IMG/VR virus record: IMGVR_UViG_3300014024_000069
Coordinates: 59,159-123,158 of that record
Length of the DNA: 64,000 nt
Direction: 5' to 3' (one strand)
Source of the DNA: a virus
Lineage: Duplodnaviria > Heunggongvirae > Uroviricota > Caudoviricetes
In this document: positions 1-59,013 of the stretch, piece by piece
Layout of the letters: every line of letters begins with the position of its first letter
How positions within the stretch are numbered: the first letter of the stretch is position 1
Notes under the pieces: generated by a model
Told to the model about the DNA's origin: nothing
The model's input: the letters and a program-made list of their open reading frames with translations, nothing else
Databases searched by the model: none
Made by a program: the position numbers and the translations under genes

Positions 1-1048
1 ATAACCGACCAGGCACGCCCACCACACGGGCGGCACCGCAAAACAACCACCCCGAGCACCCAACACGAATGCGCTGAAATGGCATGGCACCCCCGCCGGA
101 ACCCATCACGTAAACAGGCCCCACCTGCAGGGCATGAACCCCGCAATCACCACACACGGCAATTCCTTCAAGACGCACCACCAGAGCATCCAGACGAAAC
201 ACAAAAAGAACCACCCCCGCCAGGGCGCGCCGGGACTGCAGAGACAATAGACGCGACACAGCGCCCCGGTATTGCGGTGAAAACGCATCCGCACCGATAA
301 ACAGGGTTGCCGCTCACCCCGCCACATGCTGGCGCCGCGTAAGAACCAGGCACAACAGAAGCGGCAAAGCTCCCCTGTGCCGCTCACACGCACCTTTACC
401 GGCATGCCCCTTTTTGCCAACTACCGCAGCAAAACCGACTATCCCGCACCTCCCCGCCATCCACAGCTACAGACACCATACCCGGCGCGCCACGGTTTGG
501 ACTTCCCGCAAGTACTGCCCCTCTTCACTCCACCACACGCAGAAAGCACACATGGTGGGCATTCATGGCGGCTTGCCTACCTTCTGCTTTTTACACGTGG
601 CCACGGTGGGGAAGGTTATCAACGTGCCGCCAACCACCCCAAAACAAACAGCATCCTACCGCCCCCGCCCTTCCTTCTTTCCGCCGTTGATTCATTCCAC
701 AAACCCCGATTTGCCAAACCAATAGACAAAGTGTATTATGGAAATATCACACTAGCTTTTATGTGATCAACAACCCCTCTGGTGAACAGCCCCACCAGGG
801 GGTCTTTTCGTGTAGCACCAACCAGAACCCGAAAGCATACTGTCAACCCCACGAAACCCTGCAGGGAAGCCTTTTCGACAACCCATTAGGACACGCGGCG
901 CAGGCATGCCCCCGTATCGCAGCATAAGAGCCTCAAGGTACCCCACCCCCACACCACACACGACACCCGCCGCTTCTTGTGCCCACGCACCACCCAATAA
1001 GGAACAAAGGAAGCGCACTATTCTTCTCCGCGACACGCAGACAAAAAA

Positions 1049-1070
1049 GGGGTGAGGGGGCGAAAGCCCC
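1049..1070 (+). repeat. GGGGTGAGGGGGCG-AAA-GCCCC hairpin motif, copy 1 of 5 (others at 2991..3013, 4616..4640, 5523..5544, 5627..5648)
   Basis: Each copy has GGGG(T/C)(G/A)(A/C)GGGGCG followed by a GNRA-like tetraloop (GAAA, GCTA, GACA, GCAA) and GCCCC. Three copies are preceded by CAAAA(A)G. Confidence 0.7.
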
Positions 1071-4000
1071 ATATGGTCGCACACACCAACACTTATCGAC
1101 GAACCCGACATGCCCCCCAGATCGCAGGTAAAACAAGAAGAACCCGCACTGAGGAAACAAAACGAACCCCGTCGCGCCCATCACGCCACCAGCCGCCGAT
1201 AACCGAACCATGCAGCGCCGGGCACCATACAGCCCACCGTCTCCCACGGTTACTGGGTCTTCCTTCCTTCACACGCCTGTCGTATGTGAAAAATGCCACA
1301 GCACGGACTGTGAGAAATGACGGGCACCGCCGACCACAGCAAAGCCACGACACCCCAACCTTTCCCAATACGTGAATACTGCAGCGACCCCCGACCCTCT
1401 TTTAGTTTTCCCGACGAAATCCCGTTAAGCGCAAGCGCCTGACTTCCCGACGACCCCGGCGCGCACGGACATCACCCGCACCAGCACACACCACACAGAT
1501 GAGACCATCGCCGTCAATGATTCAGGTAGGGCGACCAACCAGCAAAACACTATCGGCATGTGCGCCGCAGCCCCCCTATGCGCCTATGCGGGCACACCCC
1601 TGTGGGCTAGAGAATATTTTTGCAGAACCTGTGCACAAATTCTCTTTTTGCGAACAGACCCGAAAGCCGTCACCGCGCATTAACGCCGTAACCCCACCCC
1701 TACGAAACAGGGTGGAAAAAGCGGCGAGACACAGCCACCCATAACGTGACCATGCCCGCCGCCTCCCATACAGCCCAGATCCCTAATGTCCTCCCATTAT
1801 GGAACTCAATTAGTCAGGCCACACAAGTCTTACTTTTTCATGACCTTCTCACTAAGGAAACGAGCCTCATCCTCAGGGACAGTCAACACATCCCGCGCCG
1901 CGTCCCTATGTTTTTCATACTCACTCCACGTGAGCATTGAAGACACGCACAGGGATGCGGTACCCGCAAACCCTAGTACAACAATAGTAATCACCATTGC
2001 TGTTGCTGCACCGCCGTTAAGTAAGAAAAATAAGCCTGCCCCCGCAATAAGCGCACAAAGATTGCACTTAATCTCCGAGGAAATGTAAGAAAACTTCTTA
2101 TCCCGAGCAATCGCCTTATGCTTGTCGGCAAGCGCAAGGCGTGCGTCAATATCTTTGTGATTTTTAAATTCGTTCATGTTTATCCTACCTACATATCCTA
2201 ACTGGAACGCTCTCCACGCTAGGGGTGATTTATTTCCTTTTATTTAACAAAAACTCCACCGCGTACGGGAATGCCTTCCTCGCGGTACGCCCGCCATTTA
2301 CTGCGGGCCTGATTCCTACTTAAGCGACCACCACCGCCAAGCAACCGCTTCGTCGTCAATCCTGCTTGCCTCTTTATATGAGGAGGAAAGCAAAATCTCC
2401 TCAGACGCTTTGCTATGCATCCTTTTCGTGAGGTACTTCCCAGTAGCGAAAATGGTGAAGCAGCTACCAATCAGAACAGCAACGACACCCAAAGCCACCA
2501 CACTTAAATACTCGTCTTTCCATGCTCGGTAAGCAATGTTTTCACCAAACGAAATGATGAAAGCGCCTAACAAATACAGCATGACGGCACCTTTGCCGCG
2601 CAGACAAGCCAAACGCTCATGCTTTTCTGCGAGCCGCATAATTCTGCTTTCGTCCATTTCCTCCACAGTAGGAGATGAGTAGGAGTGCACAACGATGGGA
2701 AGATGAGATGTGGTGAATTGGTTGTAGTAGTTCATGCCTTAAATTATATATTTCCCCACAAGCCACCTCAACTAAATACCCCCACTGTTCACCCCTCTAT
2801 AGTGGAAGCGTCAACAAGGGATAGGCACACCGCCCACGCGCATTCTCCCCACCCCAACAAGCGACCACGCAAACCAACACTATTCACCAAACCAACCCCG
2901 CACTCACCATGAAAAACCATAAAGAAAAACAGGCAGACACCCCACAAGAAACCCCACCCCGTCACAAGACCACACAAACGCAAAAAAGAAGAGGGGCGAG
3001 GGGCGACATCCCCAGGAAGCAGGGAGCCAGGGGCAGAAGACAAAACACCGCCGTAAACCCCATGCCTCGCCGGGCCTGCAGTACACACCACATCCAGCGA
3101 ACAGATCCCCCCCCACCGCATCGTCACGAACCCCAGTATGCCGCCCGCCTTTGCGAAAACGCCGGTGTCGCACAAAGCAAGAAACCCAAACCACACCCAC
3201 AGGGGCACGCAGGTTCTCATGACAAAAATACCGACCCACTACCACACCGGCACCTGCCTGACGAGAAACAGTAACTGTACTCGCGCGGCCAACTATACGC
3301 GCCACCCGCATCAGTCTGCGAAATACGGCACCAACGAGAAGAAACACCAAAAACCCGTCTTGACTTCACGATATCGCCCTACCTCATCACAACCCGGCGC
3401 GCCAGGCCATGCATAGGAGCAATCGCCGTGGACAGGAAGCGACACACGGGCACATCACGCGCCAAAGGTACTTATCGACGCTCCCGCTAATCAGCGCCTG
3501 ATACTACTTCCCCGAAACCCCTCAACCGTGAATCATGCTGGAAACCCCATCAGGCATGTCTGCTTGTCCCCTACCCCGTTCACGTACCCCACAACGACAC
3601 GACCTCATCCATCCTGCGCGTGGTGTGCTGGTGACGTATGACGTAAATACGAGGGCATTCCCCTTTTTGCCGCAGGGTACCAGGAACCCCAGTCAGATAA
3701 AACCCTAAAGGAAACACCACATGGGGCACACGCCACCGCAGTATCATCAGAGGGGTGCCACTTAGGGGGCGCCTGTTCTCTCACGCGGTCAAGGTGCGAG
3801 AACCGCAAAAGAAAGTCGAATACACGTGGTTCCGCGCCAATAGTAGTGGATCTAATCTCCGCCCCCGCAGCTACTTGCCCCCTTCCGCTTGCCGCCGCGC
3901 CAGCAGATTCCACCCCCGCCTACGAACTAGCGCTTCCCTGGACAGGGCCTACATTCCTCCTTGCCCGCGTCTACCCATGCCTCACCGGCAAACGTGAACC

Positions 4001-7000
4001 ACAACAGCACCCCCCAACCCAGCGAACCCGCATAGCGACACCAACGCCGAGTGCAACACAATCACCCCACGCACCTCATCAAAAAGAAAAAGCCGCCGCA
4101 AGCCAGACACACCCCCGACGCGGCAGCCTCACACAAGCAACCTCTTCTAGATTTTCCCCACTAGCTCTCGCTCATCAATATAGTCAAGCCCATCCAGAAA
4201 CTCCCCCACGGTACGCGCAGCATCACCAGACGGTCCCCGCCACCGCTTATCGACGCTCCCGCGAAAAGGTGACCACACGCCGCAACCGCACACCTCCAAC
4301 AATGAAGCTCCAACACCACCGGCACACCCAGAGCATAATCCCGAGAACCCCACATTTCACATGTAGGACTAATCCGATTTCACGCCCTGCCTTCGTACCA
4401 GAAGAACCAGGAAACGACGAACACCACCACATACAAATGAAAAACAATGAGAAAAATCACACAACAACCCACACAGGAAAAGCGCTCCACCAAATTGTTA
4501 ACCCATCCCGCATCGCTCAGCTGTGTCGCCGCATGAACCACCACGGCAACCCAAAGAATACAAAGGAGACTTAAGAGAACACCAACACCACGGGGGCGGC
4601 GCCGTCACCATTTCAGGGGGGTGAGGGGCGCTAGCCCCCCAGCAAGAAACACCAGCGCCCCCAGTCCCGCCCCAACCACTAGCTGTCAACCAAGGAAAGC
4701 GCCCCACCTCCACAGCCCCTTGCCGCCGAGGGCAAAATCCACCCACGATGATTGCCGCAAGAACCCGCGCCGGGCACGTACGAAACCAGCGCAACCACAC
4801 TAGCGTGAGAGATTTTTGAGTGCACTGAACCCACGCCGACGTCAAAGCCACCCAAACACCCCGTCATATGACACACGGGCTTTCCTCAACACCAGCAACA
4901 AGGTTGCTGGCATAGCTGCGTTAGATAACCGCCGCGCATCACAGGGAGGCACCAGAGATCCCGCTAGACCCCAGATGTATGAACAGGGGCAAGGATTGAT
5001 GCGGAACACAGCCCCGTGACATCAGCGCCAACCCCGCCACCCATCATCCGAGAACAGTCTCCCACTTCACCACGCCAGTACCGTGTTGGCAGTGCCCTGA
5101 ACCACACGCACGCCAACGCCCCAACAAGACTCCCAATGGAGAAAAACACGATGCCCGTACAGCAACCCAGGGCACAACAACACCACCCGCCCACTACAAA
5201 TCCACACAAATCACCGCGCAGAAATGAAACCCAAAAAGAACACAACCGCAAGAAACCCCATATAGAACCCCAATCAACCACCGCTGGCACCCATGAGCGC
5301 CACAGAGACACAAAACACACGGGGGCGCGGCACAAACACCAGAACCAGGTAGGCGTTGGCGCGCAGGCAAAGACAAAAGGAAGAGAAACGATGCGGGCAA
5401 GGCGGGCGGGGCGCTCACTTGTTCCCGGCGCGACCCGTGCTGCTTATCGACGAGAACAGAAGAACCCCATGTGCCGCTGAACATCAACCGCCACTAGTGG
5501 GCACCCTTGGACTGCTTCAACTGGGGTGAGGGGCGACAGCCCCCTTATCTCCAACGCACACAAACCGGCATCCTCAGCACGGACCATACCCCCACGGGCG
5601 CGCCGCCGCCCGCCGACCAAAAGCAAGGGGGCACGGGGCGCAAGCCCCGCACAAGCACAACGCGACCAAACCAACCAAAACACAACACCCCCTTGGACGA
5701 ACACACCTAGCCCCACCCTCCCCAGCACACCCACTCCCCGCACATCACCACACAACCCCAAAAAACCACCCTCACAGCTCTTCTCCCTACACAACAACAC
5801 TCCCATAAGGAAAACCCCACGGGACACCCCAAAAGAACCGCCACAAGCCCCCAGGCCCAGGCATTCACCCGCCATGAGCCACCACAGCCCAAACCCACAG
5901 TGACACACAGACAAACCCGCCACAAAAGGGGGACAGTAACCCCCGCACAGAAACCCAAAGGAATCCCCAATAGTCACCCCACCTGCCGTACCCACACCCC
6001 CAGCCACAAACCACCCCGCACTAAAACTGTATGCAACCACCCCAAGCACCGCACCGAAACCCCCGCACAGCAACCACCACCCCACCCCTACTCGTGCTCA
6101 ACAACCGTAACCACCAGGAGGAAACCCTAATAGTGAAAACCAACAGTAACCCCCACAAAACCCAACCCCGCACAGAAACCCACAGACAATAGTAAACAAT
6201 CCCAACAACCCCCCCACTCAATGAGGACACACCCTCAAACCACCCCTATCAACACCAGCCACGGCACACCCTCACCCCAAACACCCAGTAACCAGCCCAC
6301 ATCCCTACACCACCCCCATAGCACCACAGAACAAGGCCCGGCGCGACAACACCAGCAATACCACCCACAGGCATAATCCCTGTTAGAAAAACCCAATTAG
6401 AACAACCTACGGACACCCCCTTTACCCTGCCCCTCACTCCCCTACATCAGGACACACCACAAGACCCTCAGCACAGGCACCCCTCAGTCACAGACAAAAC
6501 ACCACCAAGAAAAATCCCTACTAGGACATCTTCTAGAAAAACCAAAAGAAACCCCCTACACCCCTTCATCCCTCCCCACCAAAGAACAACCCAAAAAGAA
6601 ACACACAAAGAAAACACCCCCAGAAACAACAAAAAGACCAAAACCCCCAACAACCACACACACAAACCAACAAACAACTCGCAGGCACCCCACCCACCAA
6701 GCCCCACCATACACACAAGCCGAGGGGGAGAGCAGCAAAGCAAACTCCCCCACGAGGGTGACAAGACGAAGCCTACAAGCAAATTTGCACAGCAAAAAGC
6801 GAAGAAGACAAGACGCAGACACCTAGACAAAACACAGACAACGAACCAACAACACCCCAAAGGGCGTGGCAGTTGGGAGAGCATCTGAGTTTTGACTACT
6901 TGCGTGAATGGTGGGGCGCAACCACGTGACCACACCAGCGCCCCGACCCGAAAACAGAATATATGCACCATAATGCATGTATTGTGTTTGAGGGGAGGGG

Positions 7001-7120
7001 TTGTGGTTGTGTCCGATTTTTACTGTTTTTTGTTTGGAATCCCACATATGTCTAATCAGGGCACTGTTCTAAGATTGCACCCGGACTGCAAAAATATTAG
7101 GTGGAAACCCTTGAATTAAG

Positions 7121-7159
7121 GGTGTTTTCCCGTGTTTCTGGAGACTGGACTATCACTTA
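7121..7159. repeat. Left arm of a 38/39-bp inverted repeat (partner at 7443..7481) flanking a ~280-bp AC-rich segment
   Basis: ggtgttttcccgtgtttctggagactggactatcactta is the reverse complement of taagtgatagtccagtctccagaaacacggggaaacact (1 indel). Confidence 0.85.
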
Positions 7160-7442
7160 ACGGGAAAACCGTCGCAAAAACATCAAACAATTAACGATGC
7201 GTACACCCGTGAAACACACACCCCGCACACAAAAACCAACAACTCTGCGCAACAAAACCACACAAACAAAAACCAAAACACAAAAGTGAGCGCAGCAATG
7301 CGACAGATCAAGGCGATCACTCATACGACAGCGGCCGACACCCAAACAGGCAAAGACCTCTATTCGTTAGTGTCAGAAACGCAAAACCAGCGGCACAACA
7401 ACCCCAAGCCACACAGCAACAAAACCCCAGGTCGCAAAAAAT

Positions 7443-7481
7443 AAGTGATAGTCCAGTCTCCAGAAACACGGGGAAACACTT
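7443..7481. repeat. Right arm of the inverted repeat
   Basis: See the left arm. Confidence 0.85.
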
Positions 7482-8293
7482 CTCAACCACACCCCACGGC
7501 AGCACCACCAACAAGCGAGGGCATCATCACCAAAAGACCAACCCTTACGCAAGAACAAAACCCAAAGACACACAGCAACACGCCCCACATCTTGATAAGG
7601 CGACGGACGTCAGAAAACACATGCTCCGTATCCGATGGATACAACCGCACGCCTATTGCGACCCCCAAAAAGATAACCCCCTACAGTTATCCGAACACCC
7701 CTGACGAGCAGAACATAGTACGCGGACCTCGAACCAGAACCCCACGCAAAACCATCACGTGCCCAGCGCGCCGGGCACTCACAGGCAAGAGAACGACCGC
7801 ACGTCAACTATGCGAACTGTCCTTATACGCAACAGACCACACAACGACACCGAAACCACAAATGCAACATACCCCCATGAAAGGCCGATCACGCCACACC
7901 CACAATAGGCGTACCCGCTCGCCAGCACGTGCGTGCATAATGAAACCCCCACCTGCTCCACATAAAGTAAAACAAGCGGGGGTGATTCACTCCACTCAGA
8001 AAAAGATGGGTTCCTAAAACCCAAAACAAAGAATAACACACAGTAAGCAAGAAAGCGAAACGACACACAAGCACTAATCCAAACGCCCGTGCCACCCCAC
8101 TACAAGTCAAGACCCCAACAGGAGCTAATAGCCCACCCTCTTACTTGCTCCCACAAGGGATCATTGGAAATACACCCCTCAGAAACTCCGCCAGCATTTC
8201 ACCTAGATAACCCACCCCAACCACACACCACCCCGCCGCAAGTTTTCAAAGACGACACCCCATGTGGTACACTATGACCATGCACATGCGCAT

Positions 8294-8378: not shown

Positions 8379-8636
8379 CAAAACAACCACCATCACCCCT
8401 TGCAGGGAACACTGATGGTGGTTTTCCTTATGAACACACCCACAATGCAACCCTTGCGAGCATCCTTGCCTCCAACACTATTCCTAAACATGGGCTGGTT
8501 CAAGAAGACCAGCCACACCCCCACCCACACTCTGGTTGCCCTGGTTGTCTCCGCCACGAAACCCGCACAAGAAAACCCTGCGACACACCCCGCATGTGTT
8601 TTGACCAGCGCCCCGAAACGCAATAAAATACACTAC

Positions 8637-8900
8637 ATGGAAAAACAACTAGAACAACCCTCCGAACAACTGCGCGACGTGGCATCCAGCAACCACAACT
8701 ATGTTGTGTCGCTGCACCAACAGCTTGTCGAGCACCGCAAGCAACACGGCCCGTCGATGGAGGAAATGGAAGAGCGCACAGGATGGAGCGTCGAAAAGCT
8801 GGAAAACTTTGAACGCTACGACGCTAACCCCACCCTCAACGATATTGCGCGGTACGCCACCGCCCTAGAGGTGCGCATCCAAGACATACACAAACCGTAG
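8637..8900 (+). CDS. XRE-family (Cro/C1-type) helix-turn-helix transcriptional regulator, ~87 aa
   Basis: C-terminal part of the 8400..8900 ORF from the internal ATG: LVEHRKQHGPSMEEMEERTGWSVEKLENFERYDANPTLNDIARYATALEV is a canonical XRE HTH. The upstream part of that ORF is P/T-rich compositional read-through. Confidence 0.6.
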   Translation: MEKQLEQPSEQLRDVASSNHNYVVSLHQQLVEHRKQHGPSMEEMEERTGWSVEKLENFERYDANPTLNDIARYATALEVRIQDIHKP

Positions 8901-12394: not shown

Positions 12395-12450
12395 AAACCG
12401 CCAATCCCGCACCCCCTCTATACCACCAACAACACGAAAGGAAGCACAAC

Positions 12451-17040: not shown

Positions 17041-17046
17041 ACAACA

Positions 17047-17718: not shown

Positions 17719-17732
17719 ACCAGAATCAATAC

Positions 17733-21590: not shown

Positions 21591-22092
21591 TAATATCTCC
21601 TTTTTGGTAGATGATCTTACGTTTTACCATATAAATCCTACTACCCGCGTGCTGTCATCTACAAAATGATCGCCCCTCCGCCCCCGTATGAGACGCACGC
21701 TTGACCGACGTTGAGAGTATCCCTGCCCGAAAACATTTATGCCTAGCGACATAATCTCACACACCCCTCACCCGGCGCGCCATCGCTTTGAATCCTGGCG
21801 GCTAGCCTTATGGCTATTCCAATGTGTTTAGCTTTTTGGTTCGTGCTGGTTGTGTGGGTGCGGGCGTGTTTTGCTCGTTCTGATACATGATGGTGGGGTG
21901 TTACGCTAGTGGCTACCCCTTTTTGTGGGTGGTGGGGGTTGTTGGGGGTGTTTTGGTGTTTTACGTGGGGTTTTATTGTCCCTTTTGTGTTTGTTTGTTC
22001 TGGTTTTTGTGAGTGAATGTTGTTTTATTGTTGACTGTTATGATTATATGGTGTCACAATAGGATTAAGTTAGTTAAATATTCGATAAGAAA

Positions 22093-22755: not shown

Positions 22756-22916
22756 GATGAGGTATGCCCCATGTAGGCGCACTCCTTTCCCGGCGCGCTG
22801 ATGTTTAGAGCAATAAAAGGAGACAGGTTTTATACTTGCCTCCCTTTTCCTTGTGTGTAGATGAGTTGACTCTAGATGCTTTTGCGTGGGTGCCGCTGCA
22901 CTATGGTGACAATGCC

Positions 22917-23357
22917 TTACTGCTGTCCTACCGGCTGGAGTATGAGCGTGAGCTGTTGCCCTTGATCGGGTGTGGTGGTGCTCGTGTTGTCGGGTTTAGG
23001 GTAGCTTCCTTCTTGGCGGTAGTCTTCTTCATCTAGTTCCCATTCTTCCCCGTTGCTGTCTAAGACGATGGTTTGTAGGCATGAGATGCATCTGGTGAGG
23101 GATAGTAGGACTATTTGTTTGTCTAATTGGTGTTTCTTTTTTGTGGTGATGTCTGTCAGTGTGGTGACGGCGTGTGTTTGACCGCAGATACTTAAGGGCC
23201 TGATGTTTGCTCCGCATTCGCATTCTATGCCTGTGTTTCGGTATAGTCCGCTGCCTATGTTTCCGCACATGAAGGGTGTCTTTTCCCATTCTCCCCACAC
23301 GATGGGCTGACCATCCCATTTTTGGGGTAGGCGGGTTAGTTTTTCCATGTACTTCAT
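22917..23357 (-). CDS. Cys-rich hypothetical protein (146 aa), possible zinc ribbon
   Basis: Cys clusters CGN..CEC and C..C; ATGA start/stop overlap with the upstream ImmA-like gene, suggesting an operon. Confidence 0.45.
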   Translation of the reverse strand: MKYMEKLTRLPQKWDGQPIVWGEWEKTPFMCGNIGSGLYRNTGIECECGANIRPLSICGQTHAVTTLTDITTKKKHQLDKQIVLLSLTRCISCLQTIVLDSNGEEWELDEEDYRQEGSYPKPDNTSTTTPDQGQQLTLILQPVGQQ

Positions 23358-23896
23358 TATTGTTCTTCCTCTTCTGTACGGTTCTTGTGCTTTTCGATGC
23401 GGGCTAGGCGTTTGCGAACGGTGAATATGGATGTATCAAACATGCATGCTGCCATGAGGTGTGAGTTAGTGTTGTTTATGACTTCCATGAGTGGTTTTTC
23501 TGGCATGAGTAGGGCACCAGCGAACTCGTCTGCGAAAAACTCGCAGAGGTCATAGTCGTTGTTTCGCTTCTCCAGGAAGGAGAATGAGTGTTTCTCTGCA
23601 ATGCTAATTCTCTCAATGAGATGCCCAATTGAGTGCGCGAGGAGGAATCTTTGCCGTGAGCGCGGTTCACGTGCGTTGATGTAGATTTCAGGTGGGGTGC
23701 AGGTGTCTTTATCCACCAGAGCAGATACGTCTGGACTCAGTTCGGGGGTGATGAGGATGGTTGCCTCGAATCTGTTCTCGGCAAGTTCAGCGAGTTTGCC
23801 TAGACCGTGGTCTTTGGCGGGGTTGAAGAACTGTCCTAGTTCTTCCGCGTGGTGGCGGGCGGCTTGCCATAGGAGCATCAGTGTGTCTTTCTGCAT
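23357..23896 (-). CDS. ImmA/IrrE-family (DUF955) metallopeptidase-like protein with a variant zinc motif HSIGH
   Basis: LLAHSIGHLIE sits at the HExxH position with Glu replaced by Ser; the downstream family signature is DEFAGALLMPEKPL. Confidence 0.55.
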   Translation of the reverse strand: MQKDTLMLLWQAARHHAEELGQFFNPAKDHGLGKLAELAENRFEATILITPELSPDVSALVDKDTCTPPEIYINAREPRSRQRFLLAHSIGHLIERISIAEKHSFSFLEKRNNDYDLCEFFADEFAGALLMPEKPLMEVINNTNSHLMAACMFDTSIFTVRKRLARIEKHKNRTEEEEQ

Positions 23897-24499
23897 GTTG
23901 TTCTTTTTGCTCCTGGATTGTAGGTTTTTTCCTGCTGATTTTCACCTTGGATTACACCCTGCGGTGGGATTGAGTCTTAAACATGGTGATTTCTTGTCCC
24001 CCAGATCATCTGCTATGTATTGAAAATAAAAGTAAACCTCCCCGGCGCGCCTGTGGGTAAGCAGCGACGATCCCACCGTTGGTGGGGCTGTGCGGCACCG
24101 TAAGCAATCCGACGCTACACTTGGGGATAGGGAGGTGCGGGGTGGAATGCGGGTGCGTGGAATGGGGGCATGTTGAGCAGAGGATGCTTATTGGAGTTCG
24201 GGTGACGCTCGCCCCGCACCTGTTCCGTAGAACTTTACCCTGCGTGCCGGGTGCTGGCGCACATACGCACATACCAAAGCCCCAGGCGCATTGGCTGTTG
24301 CTTGTGCAGTGGGGCCTAGAGGCGGGTCTGGGGCGTTCCTTGTGGATTATACCATATGCCTTTTCTTTCTGCGTTTGTGCTGGTGAGAGGTGTCGGGGAG
24401 GTTTTGTTTTGTTGTTGGGGGTAGTATTCTTATTTGGTGAGGAATATCTCACTGACTTTTAGTTTTTGAGTGAAACATTAAGGAGAGTTGGTTTAGTTT

Positions 24500-35039: not shown

Positions 35040-35314
35040 GCCTATTCTCTCTCCTTAGAAGACAATGTCCACCGATAAAACCCATGCAGGGACGGCGCTG
35101 GAAGTCTAATCATACGTCCAACCCTAAGAAAATATCCACACCACCCCACCGGCACAGCAGTGCCCTTGTGCATCAGGAGAGCTGGACCGAAGAAGCTCTG
35201 CTGATGTCTAGGACTAGGCTCCACCCGGCGCGCCGCGCAGGCACTGCTTGCAGTTCGTCAACATGGAGGGGCGACCACTCCCGCGCCATTGACTGCGGTG
35301 CGAGGGTGGGGGGG

Positions 35315-36004: not shown

Positions 36005-36132
36005 ATTATTGTCCTACCGCCTGTTGTTTTCTTTGTCCTAGTTTTTGTTTAAAACACGCACTCCTCCCCGCCCGGCGCGCCCGCAGTTTTTATTGCGGGC
36101 GCGTTTTCTTGCTGGGTGGGTGGTGTTTGCTT

Positions 36133-38394: not shown

Positions 38395-38539
38395 AACAAA
38401 ACCCTTTCACAAAAACAATAGAACCAAAAAATTACTACCACCCATTATATGAGTCTTCACCAAACACAATCAACGAACAGCAACACCACCAAAACAACCC
38501 CTCAAGCAGAAGCAAAATAATCACCCACAAAAACACCCA

Positions 38540-38583
38540 AACCCGGCGCGCCTGCGTTTTTGTTTATGGTGGCGCGCCGGGTT
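38540..38583. terminator. GC-rich palindromic hairpin (AACCCGGCGCGCC...GGCGCGCCGGGTT) flanked by an A-run on one side and a T-run on the other; likely terminator for the upstream large gene
   Basis: 13-bp perfect stem with a T-rich loop; on the minus strand it is followed by TGGGTGTTTTTGTGGG. Confidence 0.6.
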
Positions 38584-45922: not shown

Positions 45923-46085
45923 GTGAAACTACCCCTTTTTGCGATTGTTTGCTTTATTTTCCCAGTAAACAAGAACAACGATACCGAAAGCACTACCCAC
46001 CGGTCAACCCCCTAGACATAAGGAAACCCCAACCGGTCATCATAACCAGGCTGGGGCAGTGAGGTTCAACTTTTAGAGTGAAACC

Positions 46086-46700: not shown

Positions 46701-46704
46701 ATTC

Positions 46705-47499: not shown

Positions 47500-47532
47500 G
47501 TTCCTTTGGTCCTTACTGGTAGTTTAGTTTTC

Positions 47533-49908: not shown

Positions 49909-50000
49909 TGAGTGTTTTCCTTTCCTTATGGTGGGTGTCTAGGGGGCGATAATGTAGGGAATCTTAGGGGGTGCTAAAACTGATCAGTATTGAGGTTTGC

Positions 50001-50501
50001 TTATTGTGTGAGGGCAGCGAGCTTCTTGTTCAGTCTCCGTTGCAGTGCTTCCCACTTACTGACCACAGGCTCAGGCTCGTACAGTAGCTTCATCCCAGCC
50101 TCAATGGGTGTCCTGTCGGCTTTTCTGCGGTTGCAGGCACCACAACACGTAATCAAGTTATCCCACGTGTTGCGCCCTCCCTTGGAGCGGGGAATGATGT
50201 GGTCCACGGTATCTCCGTGCTTCCCACAGTAGGCGCATGTGTAGAAGTCACGCTCGCGGATACGTTGAAACGAAACCGTGGCAGCATCACGGACATCATC
50301 AGAGTAGTGCGGAATATTGATGTACCCGCAGTCAGTGAGCATTAGCAGCTCATGAACATCAACCGTTGTTTTGGGCGCTTGCACCGTTTTCACGACATCA
50401 CCCAGCGGTACTGCCTTCTGGGCGACAATAAGGGAAGCTGCCCTTTGCCATGATATGTAACAAAGGGCCTGAAAGCTGCTGTTAAGCAGCAAAACTTTCA
50501 T
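50001..50501 (-). CDS. HNH endonuclease (166 aa)
   Basis: YTCAYCGKHGDTVDHIIPRSKGGRNTWDNLITCCGACNRRKADR: canonical HNH with a Cys4 zinc site. Confidence 0.85.
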   Translation of the reverse strand: MKVLLLNSSFQALCYISWQRAASLIVAQKAVPLGDVVKTVQAPKTTVDVHELLMLTDCGYINIPHYSDDVRDAATVSFQRIRERDFYTCAYCGKHGDTVDHIIPRSKGGRNTWDNLITCCGACNRRKADRTPIEAGMKLLYEPEPVVSKWEALQRRLNKKLAALTQ

Positions 50502-50550
50502 CCCGCGATCCTTCCTCTGATGAGCTGAATGGTACCCAGTTAGTAAACCG

Positions 50551-50605
50551 CAGGCACATCAAAAACCGCAACGTGCGGGGGTAACGATACCACCCCCGCA
50601 CGTTG
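50551..50605. terminator. Bidirectional rho-independent terminator between nrdE and the HNH gene
   Basis: AAAAACCGCAACGTGCGGGGG-taacgatacca-CCCCCGCACGTTGCGGTTTTT: 18-bp perfect stem with an A-run before and a T-run after. Confidence 0.8.
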
Positions 50606-50687
50606 CGGTTTTTAGCAATTACTCTCAGCCTGATAGTCCCTTAGTCAAGCTGCGAGACTTGACTAAACATGGACTAAACACTGCAGT

Positions 50688-52907: not shown

Positions 52908-53195
52908 GTGATATTCGTCTCCTAAGTTGCGTGGGATATAGAACAAGAAAAAATTGGCACCCCGGCGTGGGCGTGCACTTCCTTATTTGCCTTGTTGCGG
53001 ATTGCTCTGTGTTGTGCCCGCCGAGGTGAAAGGGGTTAAGTTGCAAGCGCTGCTTATGTAGGGGCGCTAGAGCTTAGCTTACAGGGTTGTGTACAGGCGC
53101 TGGGGTACTGCAGTGGTGTTGTGTGCCGCCCTCCCATTTTGGGGGTTGCTGAGGGCGGCACATGAATCCATTCTATGCGGTTTTCTGGCGGGTGC

Positions 53196-53441
53196 TTATA
53201 CCGATGCGGGGGTGAGGCTGTCTGCCAGCTCTTTGAGCTTATCGACGCGGAAACCGCACCACTTCTCCCCCGAGTCTGTCACAACAATGGGCATGGAGAT
53301 GAATCCTGTTGACAGGGCCTCTTGGCGGCGTTCCTCATCGTTCTCAATGTTGTATTCAACATACTGAATGCCATGTTTTTTTAGGGTCTTTTTGGTCATT
53401 TTGCAGGGCATGCAGCCGCTTGTTGTATACACAGTGGTCAT
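53196..53441 (-). CDS. nrdH: NrdH glutaredoxin-like redoxin (81 aa)
   Basis: CMPC active site and WCGFRVD (cf. the WSGFRPD motif of NrdH). Confidence 0.85.
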   Translation of the reverse strand: MTTVYTTSGCMPCKMTKKTLKKHGIQYVEYNIENDEERRQEALSTGFISMPIVVTDSGEKWCGFRVDKLKELADSLTPASV

Positions 53442-53590
53442 TGGTGTTTTCCTCTTTCAATTAGGTACCATTGGGTTTTACTTCACACGCCATGCGTGAG
53501 GGCGATAGCATCTAACCTAGCACGATGTGTGAGACCATAAGACAGTACCCACCCCATGAGGGTGAGCAATATTTGAACAGTAGGTAATCA

Positions 53591-55411
53591 TTGAAAAAAA
53601 CAGGGAAAATCGCAGGTAAACTCAAAAAAACGGTGACGATAATCACAATGCTGGGGCTGACCGCAGGCACCCTCGGAGCAGGGGGATTCACCTACCTCTA
53701 CGCCACCGCAGACATACCGCACCGCGCCGGGACGCATACGATGTCGGAAATTCATTTTGTCACTTCTGATGGTGTGAATGTTGCGACGGTGCAGCCACCA
53801 GATGGGGAGAAGCAAGGCACGTCGCCTGCCGCTATTTCGCAGTATATGAAGAACGCCATTGTTGCTTCTGAGGATGGTGGGTTTTGGGAGCATTCGGGGA
53901 TAAATCCTAAGCGTATTGCGGCGGCCACGGTTCAGCATGCTTTGGGTCGTAGTGGTGGTGGCGCATCTACGATTACTCAGCAGTTGGTGAAAAACACCAT
54001 TGTGGGTGATGAACATTCGCTTGATCGTAAGGTTCGTGAGGCTGCCTATGCGTTAAAGGTTACGAACACGAAAACTAAGGATGAGGTGCTGAGTGATTAT
54101 CTGTCCATTGTGTATTTCGGACGTGGCGCGTATGGAGTTGAGGATGCGGCACGGAAGTTCTTTGGGGTCAGCGCGCTTGATTTAAATCCCGCCCAGTCGG
54201 CGCTTTTAGCGGGTATGGTACAGTCCCCCTCGGCGTTGGACCCTGATGTCAATCCAGAGGGCGCTAGGGAGCGTTTTAACTACGTTGTGGACCGCATGAA
54301 GCACGATGGGTATATTCCGCAGGGCGCACAAGTGGAGTTCCCGGAGCTAGTGTCGCCGCCTCCGCCTAAAGTCACTGTTGGTGTGGACGGGGATTATGGG
54401 CATGCGGTAAGCATGGCGTTTGCCGAGTTGGAATCAATGGGCATTGATCGCACCACTTTGCACAATGTGGGTGCCACGGTGACGTTGACTGTCAACGATG
54501 CGAAACAGCGTGCCGTACAGAACATTGTGCGCAGTCACATTGGTGGGGATTTGCGGGCTGCTGTGGTGTCGATGGACTCTGCTAACGGTGGTGTCGTTGC
54601 CATGTATTCGGGTGAAGACGGTTTGGGATTCAACTACGCTACCGCAGGGCAGATGACTGGTTCCACGGCTAAGGTTTTTGCGCTTACTGCCGCTATGGAG
54701 CGCGGTATACCCGCGTCAAAGACGTACTCGTCTGCGCCCTACAATGAGGGCGGCGTGAGCGTCACAAATTCCTCTGTTGCGTCCTGCACGGCATGTAGTA
54801 TCACCCAATCCACGGTGGAGTCGTTGAACACCTCGTATTTGCGTATTCAGAATGATATTGGTGGTGCTACGGAAACCCAGAACATGGCGTGGCGTTTGGG
54901 TGTGCCTCGTGAAATAAACGGTGAGGCAAGCCTCGGCGGCGACCAGCCCTACGACGGAATTGTGCTAGGGCAGTACCTCACCGCACCCATTGACATGGCG
55001 AACGCTTACGGCACTATCGCCTCTGGTGGTAAACGTCACCAAGCCCACATCGTTGCGGGCGTGAACACCATGAAGAAAAGCACACTGTACGAGTTCCACG
55101 GCAAAGAAGACCCCGTAATCAGTGAACAAACCGCAGCGCAAGTTAGTAACGTGCTCTCTGGGGTTGCTGACTACAGTAATCATAATCAACTCGCCGGTGG
55201 CGGCGGGAAAATGAAAACAGGGACAGTCCAGCTAGGTTCAACAGGGGAAAACCGTGATGCGTGGACAGTGGGTTTCGTTGATGGTGGGCTATCCACAGCC
55301 GTGTGGGTTGGCAGCGACAATGGTGTGCCTTTGTACTACGGAGGTGGGAAAATGTGGGGTGCCACATTGCCCGCAACTATGTGGAGGCAAACCATGAATG
55401 CCATTCGCTGA
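53591..55411 (+). CDS. Bifunctional class A penicillin-binding protein (GT51 transglycosylase plus transpeptidase), 606 aa, TTG start
   Basis: N-terminal TM helix. GT51 motifs: EDGGFWEHSG, GGGASTITQQ, RKVREAA. Transpeptidase motifs: STAKVF (SxxK) and KMKTGT (KTG). Confidence 0.8.
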   Translation: MKKTGKIAGKLKKTVTIITMLGLTAGTLGAGGFTYLYATADIPHRAGTHTMSEIHFVTSDGVNVATVQPPDGEKQGTSPAAISQYMKNAIVASEDGGFWEHSGINPKRIAAATVQHALGRSGGGASTITQQLVKNTIVGDEHSLDRKVREAAYALKVTNTKTKDEVLSDYLSIVYFGRGAYGVEDAARKFFGVSALDLNPAQSALLAGMVQSPSALDPDVNPEGARERFNYVVDRMKHDGYIPQGAQVEFPELVSPPPPKVTVGVDGDYGHAVSMAFAELESMGIDRTTLHNVGATVTLTVNDAKQRAVQNIVRSHIGGDLRAAVVSMDSANGGVVAMYSGEDGLGFNYATAGQMTGSTAKVFALTAAMERGIPASKTYSSAPYNEGGVSVTNSSVASCTACSITQSTVESLNTSYLRIQNDIGGATETQNMAWRLGVPREINGEASLGGDQPYDGIVLGQYLTAPIDMANAYGTIASGGKRHQAHIVAGVNTMKKSTLYEFHGKEDPVISEQTAAQVSNVLSGVADYSNHNQLAGGGGKMKTGTVQLGSTGENRDAWTVGFVDGGLSTAVWVGSDNGVPLYYGGGKMWGATLPATMWRQTMNAIR

Positions 55412-55510
55412 CCAATCTCTGGCCGGGTAGATGTTGCGCTTTCTGGCTGGCGTATGTATTCTTTGTTTTGTCCAAAACAATCACAACCAGAAGAAAGACA
55501 AAAGAATACA

Positions 55511-55809
55511 TGGCTAAAACTTCATTTGACTCCTTGGTCGTAAAAGCCCCTGTGGTCGTAAAAAAGAAGGGGTCTGAGTCGGAAATTTGGTTCGACGAAC
55601 TCAACCGAGAAACACGCGATGTCGTGGCGCAAGCACTCATGGACAGGTCGAAAAGCGGTTCATGGATTTTTGAGCGTTTGAAAAACCCACAAACAAGCGA
55701 ATCACGCGCCTACCCGCTACGCTTCTCCGCTTTTAAAGAGTTCAGGAAGCGGTTCCAAGAGAAGTACAAAACACTGCAGAGCTTCCGCAAAGCAGAGAAG
55801 GGTGCATAG
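55511..55809 (+). CDS. Small basic hypothetical protein (~99 aa from the ATG at 55511)
   Basis: The part of ORF 55303..55809 that follows the PBP stop: MAKTSFDSLVVKAPVVVKKKG.... Confidence 0.4.
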
Positions 55810-55811
55810 AA

Positions 55812-57050
55812 ATGGCAACATCCTTCGACCATCTCCTGGAACTCAACGACAAAGTTACCCCAAAGGGTTATCACCCAGGGCGCTTTGTGGAAAGCAAAGA
55901 CGGAGCAACCGGTTCATGGTGCCCCGACAAACCACTTCCCAAACAGCCCAGCGACGATGACATCCGACGTGCTGTGGAGGTATCCGGCTTTGATCCCAAT
56001 GAGTGGACTATTGCGAATGACCGTATGTCGATCTCAACCTGCGCGGCAATTGGAGCTGATGGAACACCAGACCCCACCCTGCGATGGTACAAGATCAACC
56101 TTGTACGCAAAACAAAAGACTTCATTGAAGAAGCCGATGAACTTCTACTGGAACTGATTAAAAACAGGTCAGGCAAGAAGAAAAAAGACAAGTCCAAGCA
56201 GAAAAAAGTGAAAGTCCCCTATCGCTTGCTGTTCATCACAGACCAGCATTTAGGCAAATCCGAGCGGGACGGCGGGGGAAGCAAGATTCTCACCCAGCGC
56301 TGGATTGACGGCGTAGAAGAAGCCCTTTCCGATGGACCCTTCAAGGAAGTACACATCGCAATGGGCGGGGATACCATTGAAGGGTATGTGTCGCAAAACG
56401 GCAAGAACATTGCCACCACAGACATGACCCTACAGGAATCCATGCGCCTGGCACAGGGACTCCTGTTGGACACCATCATGAAAGCACATGCGGTGTGCGA
56501 GAAAGTATCAGTATCAGTGGTTCCCGGAAACCACGGGGAAACCACCCGTGTTCAAGGCCGCCCCATGCGCGACAGCTACGATATTATGATCGTCGCCAAC
56601 GTTCAAGACACCATTGATTTCCACAACAAGAACAACCCTGATGACCGCATCAATGTGGAGTTCTACTACCCGAAAGAAAACCGTGTTGACGTGTCGTTTA
56701 CCTTTGGTAAATCCAACATCACTCTTGTTCACGGTCACACATTCGGCAGCGGCGGGCAAGAAAAAGGTGCCTATGATTGGTGGACCAAGCAAATCGTGGG
56801 TGGTCAGCCTTCATCAGCGTCACATATTCTGCTTGCTGGGCATTTCCATAACTGGCGGACATTCAACATGTCAACAGATCGTCAAGTTGTGTTCGGTGCC
56901 GCCCTTGAAACCTACTCTGCGTGGTTTGAGCATAAAGGTAACCCGCGAACACAAAGCGGAATCATGAAGCTTGATATTGGCTACCAGCGTTTCTACGGGA
57001 TTGGGTTGTGCCCATCCCCACCAGAGGAAAAAGAGCTTCTAGGTCTATAA
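55812..57050 (+). CDS. Calcineurin-like metallophosphoesterase (412 aa)
   Basis: Motifs ITDQHLG (DxH), GGDTIEG (GDxxD), GNHGE (GNH[DE]) and GHFHNW (GHxH). Confidence 0.65.
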   Translation: MATSFDHLLELNDKVTPKGYHPGRFVESKDGATGSWCPDKPLPKQPSDDDIRRAVEVSGFDPNEWTIANDRMSISTCAAIGADGTPDPTLRWYKINLVRKTKDFIEEADELLLELIKNRSGKKKKDKSKQKKVKVPYRLLFITDQHLGKSERDGGGSKILTQRWIDGVEEALSDGPFKEVHIAMGGDTIEGYVSQNGKNIATTDMTLQESMRLAQGLLLDTIMKAHAVCEKVSVSVVPGNHGETTRVQGRPMRDSYDIMIVANVQDTIDFHNKNNPDDRINVEFYYPKENRVDVSFTFGKSNITLVHGHTFGSGGQEKGAYDWWTKQIVGGQPSSASHILLAGHFHNWRTFNMSTDRQVVFGAALETYSAWFEHKGNPRTQSGIMKLDIGYQRFYGIGLCPSPPEEKELLGL

Positions 57051-57072
57051 CCCCTCATTAAGGAAAAGGTCT

Positions 57073-57291
57073 GTGAATACTGGTGATGATAATATAATGC
57101 CCAGTATTTACAGGCCATCTTTTACAAGGACAACAAAAATGATGAGCGAATCAGAAAAACTCGTTGATGACATTGACATCAACGACGTAAGACACTTTGC
57201 TGAACTTCCCGACGACACCATTATCACCGTTGAGGAAAACGGCGAATGGGTAGAAACCACCGTCGGGGAACTAAGAGCAGAGGAGCAGTAA
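57073..57291 (+). CDS. Small hypothetical protein (72 aa)
   Basis: ORF only. Confidence 0.3.
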   Translation: MNTGDDNIMPSIYRPSFTRTTKMMSESEKLVDDIDINDVRHFAELPDDTIITVEENGEWVETTVGELRAEEQ

Positions 57292-57401
57292 AGCACCATC
57301 CGCCCCGCGACCGTCGGTAGACGGTGGGGCGGTAACGAAAGCACCCCTTTTTTACGTCAGTGAAAAACTGCGTGTGGGGGTGCTTTTCTTTAGGTTAATC
57401 C

Positions 57402-58661
57402 CTATTCAGCTTTCTTTCTCCTGGTTGTGCGTTTTGTTGCCTTCTTTGTCGTGCGTTTGCGGGGTTTCCGCTTAGTTGTGGTTTTACCTGCGGCTTTCTT
57501 TTCTGCGTAAGCTTTACTGGACCGCTCTGACACGGCTTTCGCCTGGTCTATCTGATTCTCACCATTGACAATATCCTCCAGCGTTGAAAAGTACTTCTGC
57601 ATACCTTTCTGAACGCCACCCATAGCGTCTTTGATTTTCTGCTCATCGCCCCCAGTCCAACTAGCAAGGTAAGCCTGCGATGACTTTGAGGTATTCCCCT
57701 CACCATAGGCCCTCAAAATGCCGTAAGCAACCGTCTCCGCCTCCGCTTCTGCCTGTTCTCGTGTGAACTTTCGGTCTGGGTTTCGGGCGATGTGTCCACA
57801 CATGATGTGCCCCATTTCATGCGCAAGCGTCTCAGCTGTCTGCATTCCCTCCAATTCTTCACGTAGAACAATATAAGGCTTGCCGTCTTCCCCTAGTGTT
57901 GCGTATCCTTGTGGCGATCCGATTTCGCTTTGCGGCAATCGCTTAATCTCAATATCCATTTTCTTGGCGACAGCTTCCAAATCCTGAATCATGGAGTCAT
58001 TTGTTTTAGCCTTTGCCATGATTTCTTGTTGCTTTTGGAAATAGTTGTTCAGGGGACTTTGGGGTAGGCTTTTCACCGATTCGTCTAGGTCTTCATTTGA
58101 GAAAACACTATATTCCTTGAACGCTGTGTAATGGGTTTCTTTTTTATCCTTATCTTCCTGTTTGTCATCACTGCCGTTTTCGCTTCCGTTGTTATCGTCT
58201 TCTTTCTTCTTTTTCTTGACAAGGATTGGGCGCAGAATCTTTGCCGCCTTAGCGCCTTTACGCACCTGATAGCCGTCTTCTGCCCATTGCTTATAGGTTC
58301 GGAATGTATGCCCAGTCGGTTTCTGCAACATGAGCAAAATAGTGTTGTTGAACGAATAACTATAGCGACTACGCAGGAAATCCAGGTACTCATCCAATCC
58401 TTCCTGACTTTCCATGATGTTCCGCATGCCGTCACTTAGCTCAGACAGCATCGCTTCCGTAACATCCTTGCCATGCAAACCGGCAAACGACACGCGACCC
58501 TCACTGGTGGTGGCAGCGGAAAGAGTCGCCCCGATAGAGGGAGCTAGGCTCGCCGCCCCCGCTGCGGCGGCCGCTGGGGGTTCGTAGTTCGTGTTTTCCC
58601 TTCCGAAAATCATTCTCTGATGCTCTGAACCTGGTCCGCCATGAGCCATTCCTTTAACCAT
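57402..58661 (-). CDS. ArdC-like protein (ssDNA-binding ArdC-N domain plus C-terminal HExxH metalloprotease) with a 60-aa N-terminal extension carrying the shared leader
   Basis: Strong SD GAGGAA 6 nt before ATG MVKGMAHGGPGSEHQRMIFGRENT. The ArdC-N pattern is SFNNTILLMLQKPTGHTFRTYKQWAEDGYQVRKGAKAAKIL. The metalloprotease motif is LAHEMGHIMCGH. An internal poly-Lys/acidic linker is present. Confidence 0.7.
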   Translation of the reverse strand: MVKGMAHGGPGSEHQRMIFGRENTNYEPPAAAAAGAASLAPSIGATLSAATTSEGRVSFAGLHGKDVTEAMLSELSDGMRNIMESQEGLDEYLDFLRSRYSYSFNNTILLMLQKPTGHTFRTYKQWAEDGYQVRKGAKAAKILRPILVKKKKKEDDNNGSENGSDDKQEDKDKKETHYTAFKEYSVFSNEDLDESVKSLPQSPLNNYFQKQQEIMAKAKTNDSMIQDLEAVAKKMDIEIKRLPQSEIGSPQGYATLGEDGKPYIVLREELEGMQTAETLAHEMGHIMCGHIARNPDRKFTREQAEAEAETVAYGILRAYGEGNTSKSSQAYLASWTGGDEQKIKDAMGGVQKGMQKYFSTLEDIVNGENQIDQAKAVSERSSKAYAEKKAAGKTTTKRKPRKRTTKKATKRTTRRKKAE

Positions 58662-59013
58662 GATTATTCCTCAAATATCCATTCGGTATCTAATGTGAGT
58701 TCTTGCCATTCATTAAGATACCCCACGGGATGGAATACACAATCAACCCCAGCTCAACCAACGCACCAAAAGCATTAACACCCCCATACCCGGCGCGGCG
58801 ATTTTGTTTGTGGAGCGCAGCGCGGTTGAGAAGATTTTCTTGTCCCTCTTTTCCTCCCTCTACCCCTCCATCGGTAGGTCACTAATGGATACATGTTCAG
58901 GGTTGTTGTGCTTTGTGAACACATATAGGAAAACCCCGCATGGTTTTCTTCATGCAGGGTTAATGCGCAGGCTATGAGCGGCGGAGTTGGCTCCTTGCCG
59001 CCCTTGACGGTGC

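Follow-up and report, generated by a model that had tools for sequence, protein, structure and literature searches.

We found a short GC-rich box that recurs in the non-coding DNA of an uncultured tailed phage (Caudoviricetes) and points toward the genes that it precedes. The DNA analyzed is a stretch of 64,000 nucleotides, hereafter the window, covering positions 59,159 to 123,158 of the IMG/VR record IMGVR_UViG_3300014024_000069. On the sense strand of the downstream gene the box reads GGCGCGCCGGG(T), its G+C content is 92–100%, and it is found at the upstream border of selected transcription units. Our tentative suggestion, preferred with less than even confidence, is that a protein of the phage binds the box with a fixed polarity, which would make it resemble an operator or a stoperator. 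A preliminary description of the window had noted the motif upstream of leftward genes and had proposed a promoter-proximal operator or activator site, comparable to the stoperators and late-promoter motifs of actinophages.

Enrichment, polarity and position of the box

The recurrence noted in the preliminary description is real. With at most one mismatch allowed, MCCCGGCGCGCC has 17 matches in the window versus 0.49 expected, and 17 matches were reached in none of 100 shuffles. The core GGCGCGCC has 14 matches versus 0.94 expected, CCCGGCGCG is the most frequent 9-mer outside a non-coding tract at positions 1..8100, and the box motif is the top direct-repeat family of the window. The window has at least 15 copies by our count, and further ones were found in its flanks. 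None of the exact copies is coding, and all nine of the CCGGCGCGCC 10-mers are non-coding too, seven of them in one orientation. At the same mismatch level the density of the box at positions 8101–64000 is 0.95/kb in non-coding DNA versus 0.08/kb in coding DNA. The background G+C content of the window is 42–58% rather than the uniform 45–50% assumed before.

The conserved sequence ends where the box ends. In an alignment of 23 non-redundant sites from several strains, the information is confined to the 11–12 positions of the box, and no second conserved block was found at a fixed spacing from −40 to +70 around it. The hairpin potential of the motif plus 30 nt of downstream flank is that of shuffled sequences (mean z 0.02), and folding of ±45 nt on both strands gave structure only at the copy at 36070 and at the pair of copies at 38541/38571. 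The covariance models of Rfam 15 found tRNAs alone; neither the boxes nor the tract nor the long intergenic regions gave a match. An isolated and asymmetric box of 11–12 nt, with no second block and no hairpin beyond chance, fits a protein site. Several other descriptions of the element were rejected. A terminator or hairpin arm does not agree with the unfolded single copies, and a bipartite or fixed-spacing promoter does not agree with −10-like hexamers that occur at variable offsets. Neither are there longer repeat cassettes around the boxes, only a subclass of 5–7 copies with the weak longer consensus AAAC-N3-box-NN-GG; N3-GTTT(T) comes after several of the copies when these are read on the opposite strand. 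The box is not an ordinary promoter, as no σ70/σA −35/−10 pair (16–19 bp apart) was found in the alignment.

The polarity of the box follows the neighbouring gene. Within the window the gene-relative and the genome-relative orientations are confounded, because all gene-proximal boxes there precede leftward genes. We walked beyond the window on related contigs, to the left with L010/L011, L018 and L024 and to the right with L012 and L019–L021, taking the direction of transcription from the orientation of the genes. The sense strand reads GGCGCGCCGGGT at all nine sites that lie at most 300 nt upstream of convincing genes (binomial P≈0.002). Two of the sites outside the window have an inverted box in front of a rightward gene (L024 2087→2274 and 9706→9998), and one more precedes a leftward gene (L018rc 6110→5817). 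The exceptions to the polarity are the hairpin partner at 38571, the palindromic double boxes, and L024 8048, which lies 395 nt upstream of its gene. Four of the nine sites are in divergent contexts (divergent intergenic regions are found, for example, at 21770, 24040 and L024 2087), which argues for a function on the 5' side of genes and against a 3'-end function.

Reading toward the gene, the usual order is the stop codon of the previous gene and its terminator hairpin, if there is one, then the box, then a σA/σ70-like promoter, and then a ribosome-binding site and the start codon. A terminator of the upstream gene lies just before the box at 22788, 36070, 38541 and 58788. We predicted a σA-like promoter between the box and the gene at five sites. 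Three are on the minus strand of the window: 38444..38473 (TTGATT-18-TATAAT, σA/σ70-like) before a gene for a 313-residue protein, 35109..35138 (TGGATA-18-TATGAT) before a gene for a 301-residue protein, and 23917..23945 (GTGAAA-17-TACAAT) before a protease gene, with their −35 elements beginning 68, 85 and 95 nt from the box, respectively. The other two, L024 2216–2245 and L024 9903–9931 (TTGACA-17-TAATAT), lie between the boxes and the rightward genes. Over the five sites the box and the −35 element are 68, 85, 95, 129 and 197 nt apart. This spacing is not fixed and shows no helical phasing. The genes preceded by a box have Shine-Dalgarno sequences of their own, and the box lies 66–300 nt upstream of their starts. 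Most intergenic regions have no box and have their own diverse terminators and TTGACA/TATAAT-type promoters, so the box is an extra element of a subset of units and is neither a general promoter part nor a general terminator part. The proposal of a promoter-proximal operator or activator thus holds in that the box is a directional element 5' of genes and not a terminator fragment, but the box is not promoter-proximal, with the σA-like promoters lying 68–197 nt gene-ward.

We infer the binding of a protein, its identity and the sign of its effect, and the mechanism may be as follows. A sequence-specific DNA-binding protein encoded by the phage, possibly the RstR/XRE-type helix-turn-helix (HTH) protein at 8415–8900, would recognize GGCGCGCCGGG(T) with a fixed polarity. 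The box would stand at the upstream border of a subset of units, past the preceding terminator if there is one and 70–200 bp before a σA-type promoter, and the bound protein would act directionally on RNA polymerase heading to the downstream gene. Such an operator- or stoperator-like gate might make these units a class under a control of its own; among them are the genes of an ArdC-like protein and a CapP/IrrE-like protease as well as small accessory genes. A back-to-back pair of boxes additionally folds into a terminator hairpin, and in the gene-sparse region boxes of the same kind are interspersed in non-coding DNA.

A number of observations weigh against a protein-bound control site. None of the boxes overlaps a predicted promoter, and hence no true operator is seen. 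Several sites are divergent, where no co-directional upstream transcription is expected that would need blocking. About 20 kb of tightly packed leftward genes in the right flank have no intergenic box, and the left side, gene-sparse over at least 25 kb, is box-rich with boxes in both orientations. The near-copies in coding DNA, four versus 0.07 expected, are all within the intein-bearing ClpB gene and mostly in low-complexity intein linkers. Among strains 83–99% identical to each other the 12-mer differs at 6.4% of positions and its flanks at 6.1% (P=0.79). At ~321 kb the phage is probably lytic, and one would therefore not expect it to have an immunity-repressor system. We found no more than a candidate for a box-binding factor, the XRE-type HTH protein. 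Finally, stoperators of Cluster A phages lie in short intergenic gaps or at gene ends, some of them inside promoters, and the boxes do not share this placement.

The strain comparison also tells how the copies evolve. Phylogenetic footprinting of the box was rejected, its conservation being no better than that of the flanks, and individual copies are gained and lost among strains, and the box is lineage-specific. Two changes were seen in the copy at 21770; the copy at 58788 has lost 3 nt in L012 and shows two changes in L008. The diverged relatives that we found through rIIA (34–42% identity), including L014, L016 and L009, are without the box. Over-representation together with turnover fits redundant binding sites and equally a drive-generated repeat, and the latter is disfavoured because of the polarity rule. 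As a separate observation, the distant rIIA locus of L009 (NCBI GCA_003555765.1, QWCJ01000184.1; 22.7 kb) has a hairpin repeat unrelated to the box (GAGGAGGTTGCGCGGATTTCAAGG…) in 14 intergenic copies, along with several rIIA paralogues and a TnpB/Cas12f-like gene.

The copies in the non-coding tract range from exact to degenerate. The copy at 480..491 (minus strand) is exact, reading ACCCGGCGCGCC on the plus strand and GGCGCGCCGGGT on the minus strand; it is kept in strains L010 and L011 and has a C variant in L006. It is convergent with an inverted copy at 224..235 (plus strand, GGCGCGCCGGGA, one mismatch). The weak minus-strand copy at 1454..1465 (CCCCGGCGCGCA, one mismatch) is lost in the IMG/VR relative, while at the exact minus-strand copy at 3392..3407 the relative has the perfect 16-bp palindrome ACCCGGCGCGCCGGGT. 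Two minus-strand copies are degenerate: 5423..5434 (TCCCGGCGCGAC, two mismatches), which is nearer the consensus in the relative (TCCCGGCGCGCC), and 6336..6347 (GCCCGGCGCGAC), in the most A+C-rich part of the tract. A degenerate palindromic double box at 7761..7776 (GCCCAGCGCGCCGGGC) marks the right border of the tract and is a perfect ACCCGGCGCGCCGGGC in L011 and L025.

The remaining copies lie among genes, and all single ones are on the minus strand. The exact copy at 21770..21781 lies between divergent genes, 180 nt before the start (21590) of a gene for a 192-residue protein. The degenerate copy at 22788..22799 (TCCCGGCGCGCT, two mismatches) is in a convergent intergenic region just past a bidirectional terminator hairpin at ~22816–22849. 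The C variant at 24040..24051 (CCCCGGCGCGCC), again divergent intergenic, is 144 nt upstream of the start (23896) of the CapP/IrrE-like protease gene, and a degenerate 16-bp palindromic copy at 24237..24252 (ACCCTGCGTGCCGGGT) is 248 nt upstream of the rightward ClpB gene. The exact copy at 35223..35234 is 184 nt upstream of the 301-residue gene (start 35039). The copy at 36070..36081 (GCCCGGCGCGCC, one mismatch) is 66 nt upstream of a 229-residue gene (start 36004) and overlaps the 3' arm of a hairpin at 36074–36105. The pair at 38541..38582 consists of two exact back-to-back copies, 38541–38552 and 38571–38582, separated by an 18-nt spacer; it forms a bidirectional terminator-like hairpin with a 12-bp stem, 30 nt past the stop of a 1296-residue gene and 147 nt upstream of the 313-residue gene (start 38394), and is conserved in L002. 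The copy at 58788..58799 (ACCCGGCGCGGC, one mismatch) is 127 nt upstream of the ArdC-like gene (start 58661). These measurements bear out the distances reported earlier for the six leftward starts. The coordinates listed earlier are right to 1–2 nt, with the copies at 5423 and 22788 weaker than had been implied; the listing was incomplete, as it missed 6336, 7761–7776, 24237–24252 and the four near-copies in the ClpB/intein gene.

Competing explanations of the box

The main rival is that the box is the core of a phage-specific promoter, used by a phage σ-like factor, a phage polymerase or a modified host polymerase, with transcription starting just gene-ward of it. We consider this possible but doubtful. 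The box would then be a second promoter upstream of the σA-type one, giving G/U-rich leaders of 65–300 nt, and it would give long non-coding RNAs in the gene-sparse region; phages often have tandem promoters that belong to different temporal classes. The gene-ward polarity in every context, including the divergent regions and the two rightward genes, agrees with this, and the back-to-back pairs and the palindromes at unit borders resemble divergent promoters. Apart from 38541/38571, such pairs are found on the left side 311 nt (L010rc 5835/6146) and 457 nt (L024 9249/9706) apart, and the double boxes at the borders are 16-bp palindromes. The base composition gives further support. The cumulative keto-skew has a turning point at most 12 nt from the box at 21770 (turn at 21782), 38541 and 58788, as expected if a transcription-coupled asymmetry begins there, and the left/right contrast in A+C at the boxes, with a mean of 0.21 and a null standard deviation of 0.086, is far above the null. 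However, the box has a very high G+C content, and neither an AT-rich melting element nor a −10-like block stands at a fixed distance from it; known phage-polymerase promoters are longer or AT-rich. Some copies face the 3' ends of genes (38571) or one another (224/480), the copies are not conserved above their flanks, and the ~110 kb examined showed no gene for an RNA polymerase or a σ factor.

We speculated further that the boxes start phage-specific transcription of long, G/U-rich and Rho-resistant non-coding RNAs from the gene-sparse region of more than 20 kb, ~8–11 kb of which is truly non-coding, as well as of accessory and anti-defence genes; this seems to us decidedly unlikely. If it were true, the jumbo phage would have a large compartment dedicated to producing non-coding RNA, served by a GC-rich single-box promoter unlike the known ones.

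Another possibility, which we regard as unlikely, is that the box is a transcription boundary that needs no protein, i.e. a bidirectional pause or termination point of the Rho type or assisted by a hairpin, where the nascent RNA arriving from either side is C-rich and G-poor like a Rho-utilization (rut) site. In the 80 nt of RNA before the box C exceeds G, by +0.07 on average in the sense approach and +0.11 in the antisense approach, versus 0±0.11, and C exceeds G on both approaches at 4 of 15 sites versus 2% of random positions. The box is often past or overlapping a hairpin terminator (36070, 38541/71 and 22788), and the N3-GTTT(T) after several copies would fit a boundary too. Most sites nevertheless miss the composition signature, the single boxes have no hairpin, and a strict 11-nt sequence with gene-relative polarity is unexpected for Rho terminators. 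The sites in divergent regions have nothing upstream to terminate, and other intergenic regions end with unrelated hairpins. The composition pattern, which is not universal, could reflect transcription that starts at the box, a Rho-type boundary or neither of the two.

The box might also have no regulatory role and be a selfish or drive-generated short repeat in unconstrained DNA, comparable to repetitive extragenic palindromic (REP) sequences or their paired form (REPIN), to a footprint of a mobile element or to a product of biased repair. We find this highly improbable, although the conservation equal to the flanks, the gain and loss of copies, their abundance in gene-sparse non-coding DNA, the excess of near-copies in the ClpB intein linkers, and the doublets and 16-bp palindromes all agree with it. 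A Vsr-like gene (very-short-patch repair endonuclease; L012 7032-7805, ~2.9 kb past the right end of the window; weak Pfam match) is also present, and biased repair could in principle affect the frequencies of GC-rich words. A drive-generated repeat leaves the 9/9 gene-relative polarity unexplained. There is no shared homology of the flanks, hence the copies are not duplicated cassettes, and singlets, which do not fold, are far commoner than doublets. In the ~110 kb examined, which is the smaller part of the genome and in which only selected proteins were compared with family libraries, we saw no transposase or RAYT-like gene.

Least probable of all is a role in DNA metabolism. The box would then be a place of strand-specific nicking or loading, a signal for an origin or for priming, or a hotspot of recombination, and its polarity would reflect strand choice. 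In favour of this, T5-like and some Pseudomonas phages have site-specific single-strand interruptions with consensus sequences, the box is asymmetric and strictly polar as to strand, the local switch of keto-skew (from A+C-rich to G+T-rich on each strand) has the sign of a bidirectional origin, and a hypervariable segment in L008 ends exactly at the 58788 box. Against it, the polarity follows the neighbouring gene and not the genome, two rightward genes have an inverted box, and the other strain breakpoints in the tract are off the boxes.

The non-coding tract, the source genome and neighbouring genes

The box also marks many kb of strand-skewed non-coding DNA, which is worth study by itself. 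The tract at 1..8100 of the window has about nine boxes and no genes except two small ones that run leftward (1830–2177 and 2316–2735), for which there is a promoter at 2771–2743. When the window is compared with the IMG/VR strain, the 3-periodicity of substitutions is strong in every gene from 9080 on, and none is seen in 1–8100 except weakly at the gene for a 139-residue protein; the tract is therefore truly non-coding save for the two small genes. Hidden coding in the tract or in box-containing open reading frames (ORFs) was rejected, a called ORF of 304 residues with two boxes also being without a coding signature. It follows that the distances from tract boxes to spurious leftward ORFs, given in the preliminary description, are meaningless. 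The tract evolves at a roughly synonymous rate, and DNA of this type continues to the left of the window in other strains (L010/L011, L007, L018, L024). Its A+C content is up to 80% on the plus strand (5600–6800), i.e. the G+T-rich strand is the minus strand. Multi-kb non-coding DNA with such a strand skew is unusual for a phage genome.

Two intergenic regions, 21800-22100 and 24100-24450, to the right of the 21770 and 24040 boxes, contain inverted matches to the tract, e.g. GGGGGTTGTTGGGGGTGTTT versus 6194–6213. There the adjacent rightward genes (NERD-like and ClpB) have the G+T-rich strand as their sense strand. By analogy the tract would be 'sense' in the leftward direction, which gives indirect support to the leftward transcription proposed earlier, although it is no evidence of transcription as such. 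The tract has some further repeats. An inverted repeat at 7122-7159 / 7442-7479 (38 nt, 97%) flanks 282 nt, is conserved in L004 and L025, and could be a small mobile element or a structured RNA. The hairpin word GGGGYGAGGGGCGNNAGCCCC with a GNNA tetraloop recurs at 1049, 2993, 4618, 5523 and 5628, and the word CTTATCGACG at 1092, 3471, 4246 and 5443.

The source of the window is a ~321-kb uncultured jumbo phage that is widespread in human oral metagenomes. The proteins of the window have exact matches on contig k119_70253 (321,838 bp) of the European Nucleotide Archive assembly ERZ27279280, at ~146.8–210.8 kb, and on a 66.8-kb Logan contig. The same proteins are found on more than 20 contigs from many samples, several of them 298–322 kb long, and IMG/VR has three matching contigs, including IMGVR_UViG_7000000510_000049 (234 kb). 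The gene content points to a jumbo phage: the window encodes rIIA/rIIB, a class I ribonucleotide reductase with glutaredoxin, DnaG, an HNH endonuclease, an RNA ligase, a ClpB-like ATPase with two inteins, a penicillin-binding protein, a giant M23/NlpC hydrolase, the ArdC-like protein and 11 tRNAs. A similarity search found no close relative among GenBank phages or plasmids, and the most distant detectable similarity is to large actinophages. Single genes do not call the host, as the penicillin-binding protein has no close match and NrdE is only 60% identical to that of Corynebacterium phoceense. Taken together, this NrdE identity, the GTG/TTG starts and the Pro/Ala-rich linkers weakly suggest a Corynebacterium-like host.

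The candidate factor lies at the right edge of the tract. The conserved part of the RstR/XRE-type HTH protein (8415..8900, plus strand) is its C-terminal ~102 residues, and its homologues, all at least 76% identical, come from this phage group alone. Downstream of the 24040 box the first gene encodes a CapP/ImmA/IrrE-type M78 metalloprotease (23357..23896, minus strand; capP E=1.9e-13), and the ArdC-like protein has an M78 domain as well. Proteases of this type usually work with XRE-type repressors (ImmR/ImmA, DdrO/IrrE, CapH/CapP). The metalloprotease and the HTH protein, encoded 15 kb apart, could form such a protease–repressor switch.

Other genes of the window also deserve mention. The 229-residue protein (35315-36004, minus strand) and the ArdC-N/M78 protein (57402-58661, minus strand), each encoded by a gene preceded by a box, have similar first 24 residues (71% identity, E=3e-8; M..GMA.GGPG.E.QR.IFGR.NT) and are otherwise unrelated; the shared N-terminus could be a targeting or packaging signal. 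The gene of the ClpB-like AAA+ ATPase (24500-29305) is split by the two inteins. Large paralogous proteins of 1104, 450, 225, 819 and 223 residues are encoded on the plus strand at 9080-17718. They have no Pfam match, share their N-termini and have Hint-like 'LLTNKGYI' segments and C-terminal membrane or coiled-coil parts, and the sense strand of their genes is A+C-rich as in the tract.

The genome is also mosaic. At 44660-59973, rIIA, rIIB and a gene for a 204-residue protein are 76–80% identical to those of L008 (Logan SRR799626_24587), while their neighbours are 93–97% identical. The hypervariable segment of L008 at 58800–59013 (64% identity) stops exactly at the 58788 box, and an apparent conserved block after this box was rejected as the background identity of the mosaic genome. 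Strain recombination breakpoints at boxes were likewise rejected, L008 being the one case. A different word, GATGGTGGG, which resembles the Chi-like words GNTGGTGG, occurs nine times on the plus strand versus twice on the minus strand, in genes of either orientation (e.g. at 21889, 25361, 39280, 44601, 51252, 51552, 53873, 55280 and 63639). With a Markov expectation of 6.1 its enrichment is weak, and the strand bias is notable.

Comparison with known systems

The box shares some features with several known kinds of elements. REP/REPIN sequences and bidirectional intrinsic terminators are also GC-rich and intergenic, and some inverted doublets of the box fold after stop codons as they do (38541/38571; 36074–36105). 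The boxes, however, are mostly singlets that do not fold, their polarity follows the downstream gene, and the other intergenic hairpins are unrelated to them. The OB sites of plasmid RK2 (ParB/KorB-type) are a dozen or so GC-containing copies, tens to hundreds of bp from promoters, fully palindromic and independent of orientation. The box is similar in having a dozen or so short copies over the replicon at variable distances from promoters, but it is polar whereas the OB sites are palindromic, and no ParB/KorB-like gene was seen in the sequence examined. The MotA box of T4 and the gp55 late promoter TATAAATA are AT-rich and have a fixed position relative to the −10 element or the start site. 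Like them the box is a phage-specific short word that is polar to the gene and defines a class of units, temporal in the case of T4; unlike them it has no constant spacing to any −10-like element and is almost entirely G+C.

Among the mycobacteriophages, the start-associated sequences (SAS) of Cluster K are, like the box, asymmetric repeats on the 13-bp scale, of unproven function, that precede some of the non-structural genes in a single orientation (PMC3203893). They are located 3–7 bp before the start codon, where they take in the Shine-Dalgarno core, and the extended form (ESAS) adds inverted repeats (PMC3203893). The box, at 66–300 nt upstream and with no pairing potential with the ribosome-binding region, lacks this defining feature.

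The best functional analogy for the box is with the stoperators of Cluster A phages (L5, Bxb1), which are bound by a gp71-type repressor. Each genome has 20–30 stoperators, which are asymmetric sites of 13–14 bp whose orientation follows transcription and most of which are outside promoters (PMC6550527, PMC9283540). Both elements are short sites (12–14 bp) without overall dyad symmetry in many non-coding copies, their orientation tracks transcription, and both are lineage-specific and variable between related phages (PMC9283540, PMC6550527). The likeness to stoperators put forward in the preliminary description extends to length, asymmetry, copy number and polarity. Other features of the box do not support the earlier interpretation: it has no second conserved block, its copies are conserved no better than their flanks, and most intergenic regions are boxless. 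The box sequence is unrelated and has the palindromic GC core GGCGCGCC, the boxes are located in long intergenic regions far upstream of σA-like promoters and in gene-free DNA, and the phage is a probably lytic jumbo phage. Cluster A phages have a cognate monomeric immunity repressor of two domains, whereas no gp71-like repressor was identified here and the RstR/XRE-type HTH protein stands alone as a candidate. The box is not a member of the Cluster A system, because its sequence is unrelated, no cognate repressor is known and its placement differs. We regard it as a new form of a familiar kind of phage signal. If it is a polar control site, it defines a regulon that includes the ArdC-like anti-restriction protein, the CapP/IrrE-type protease and accessory genes, and it offers a handle on the regulator. 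The stoperator principle would then extend from small temperate mycobacteriophages to a jumbo phage, in a geometry where the sites stand far upstream of ordinary promoters.

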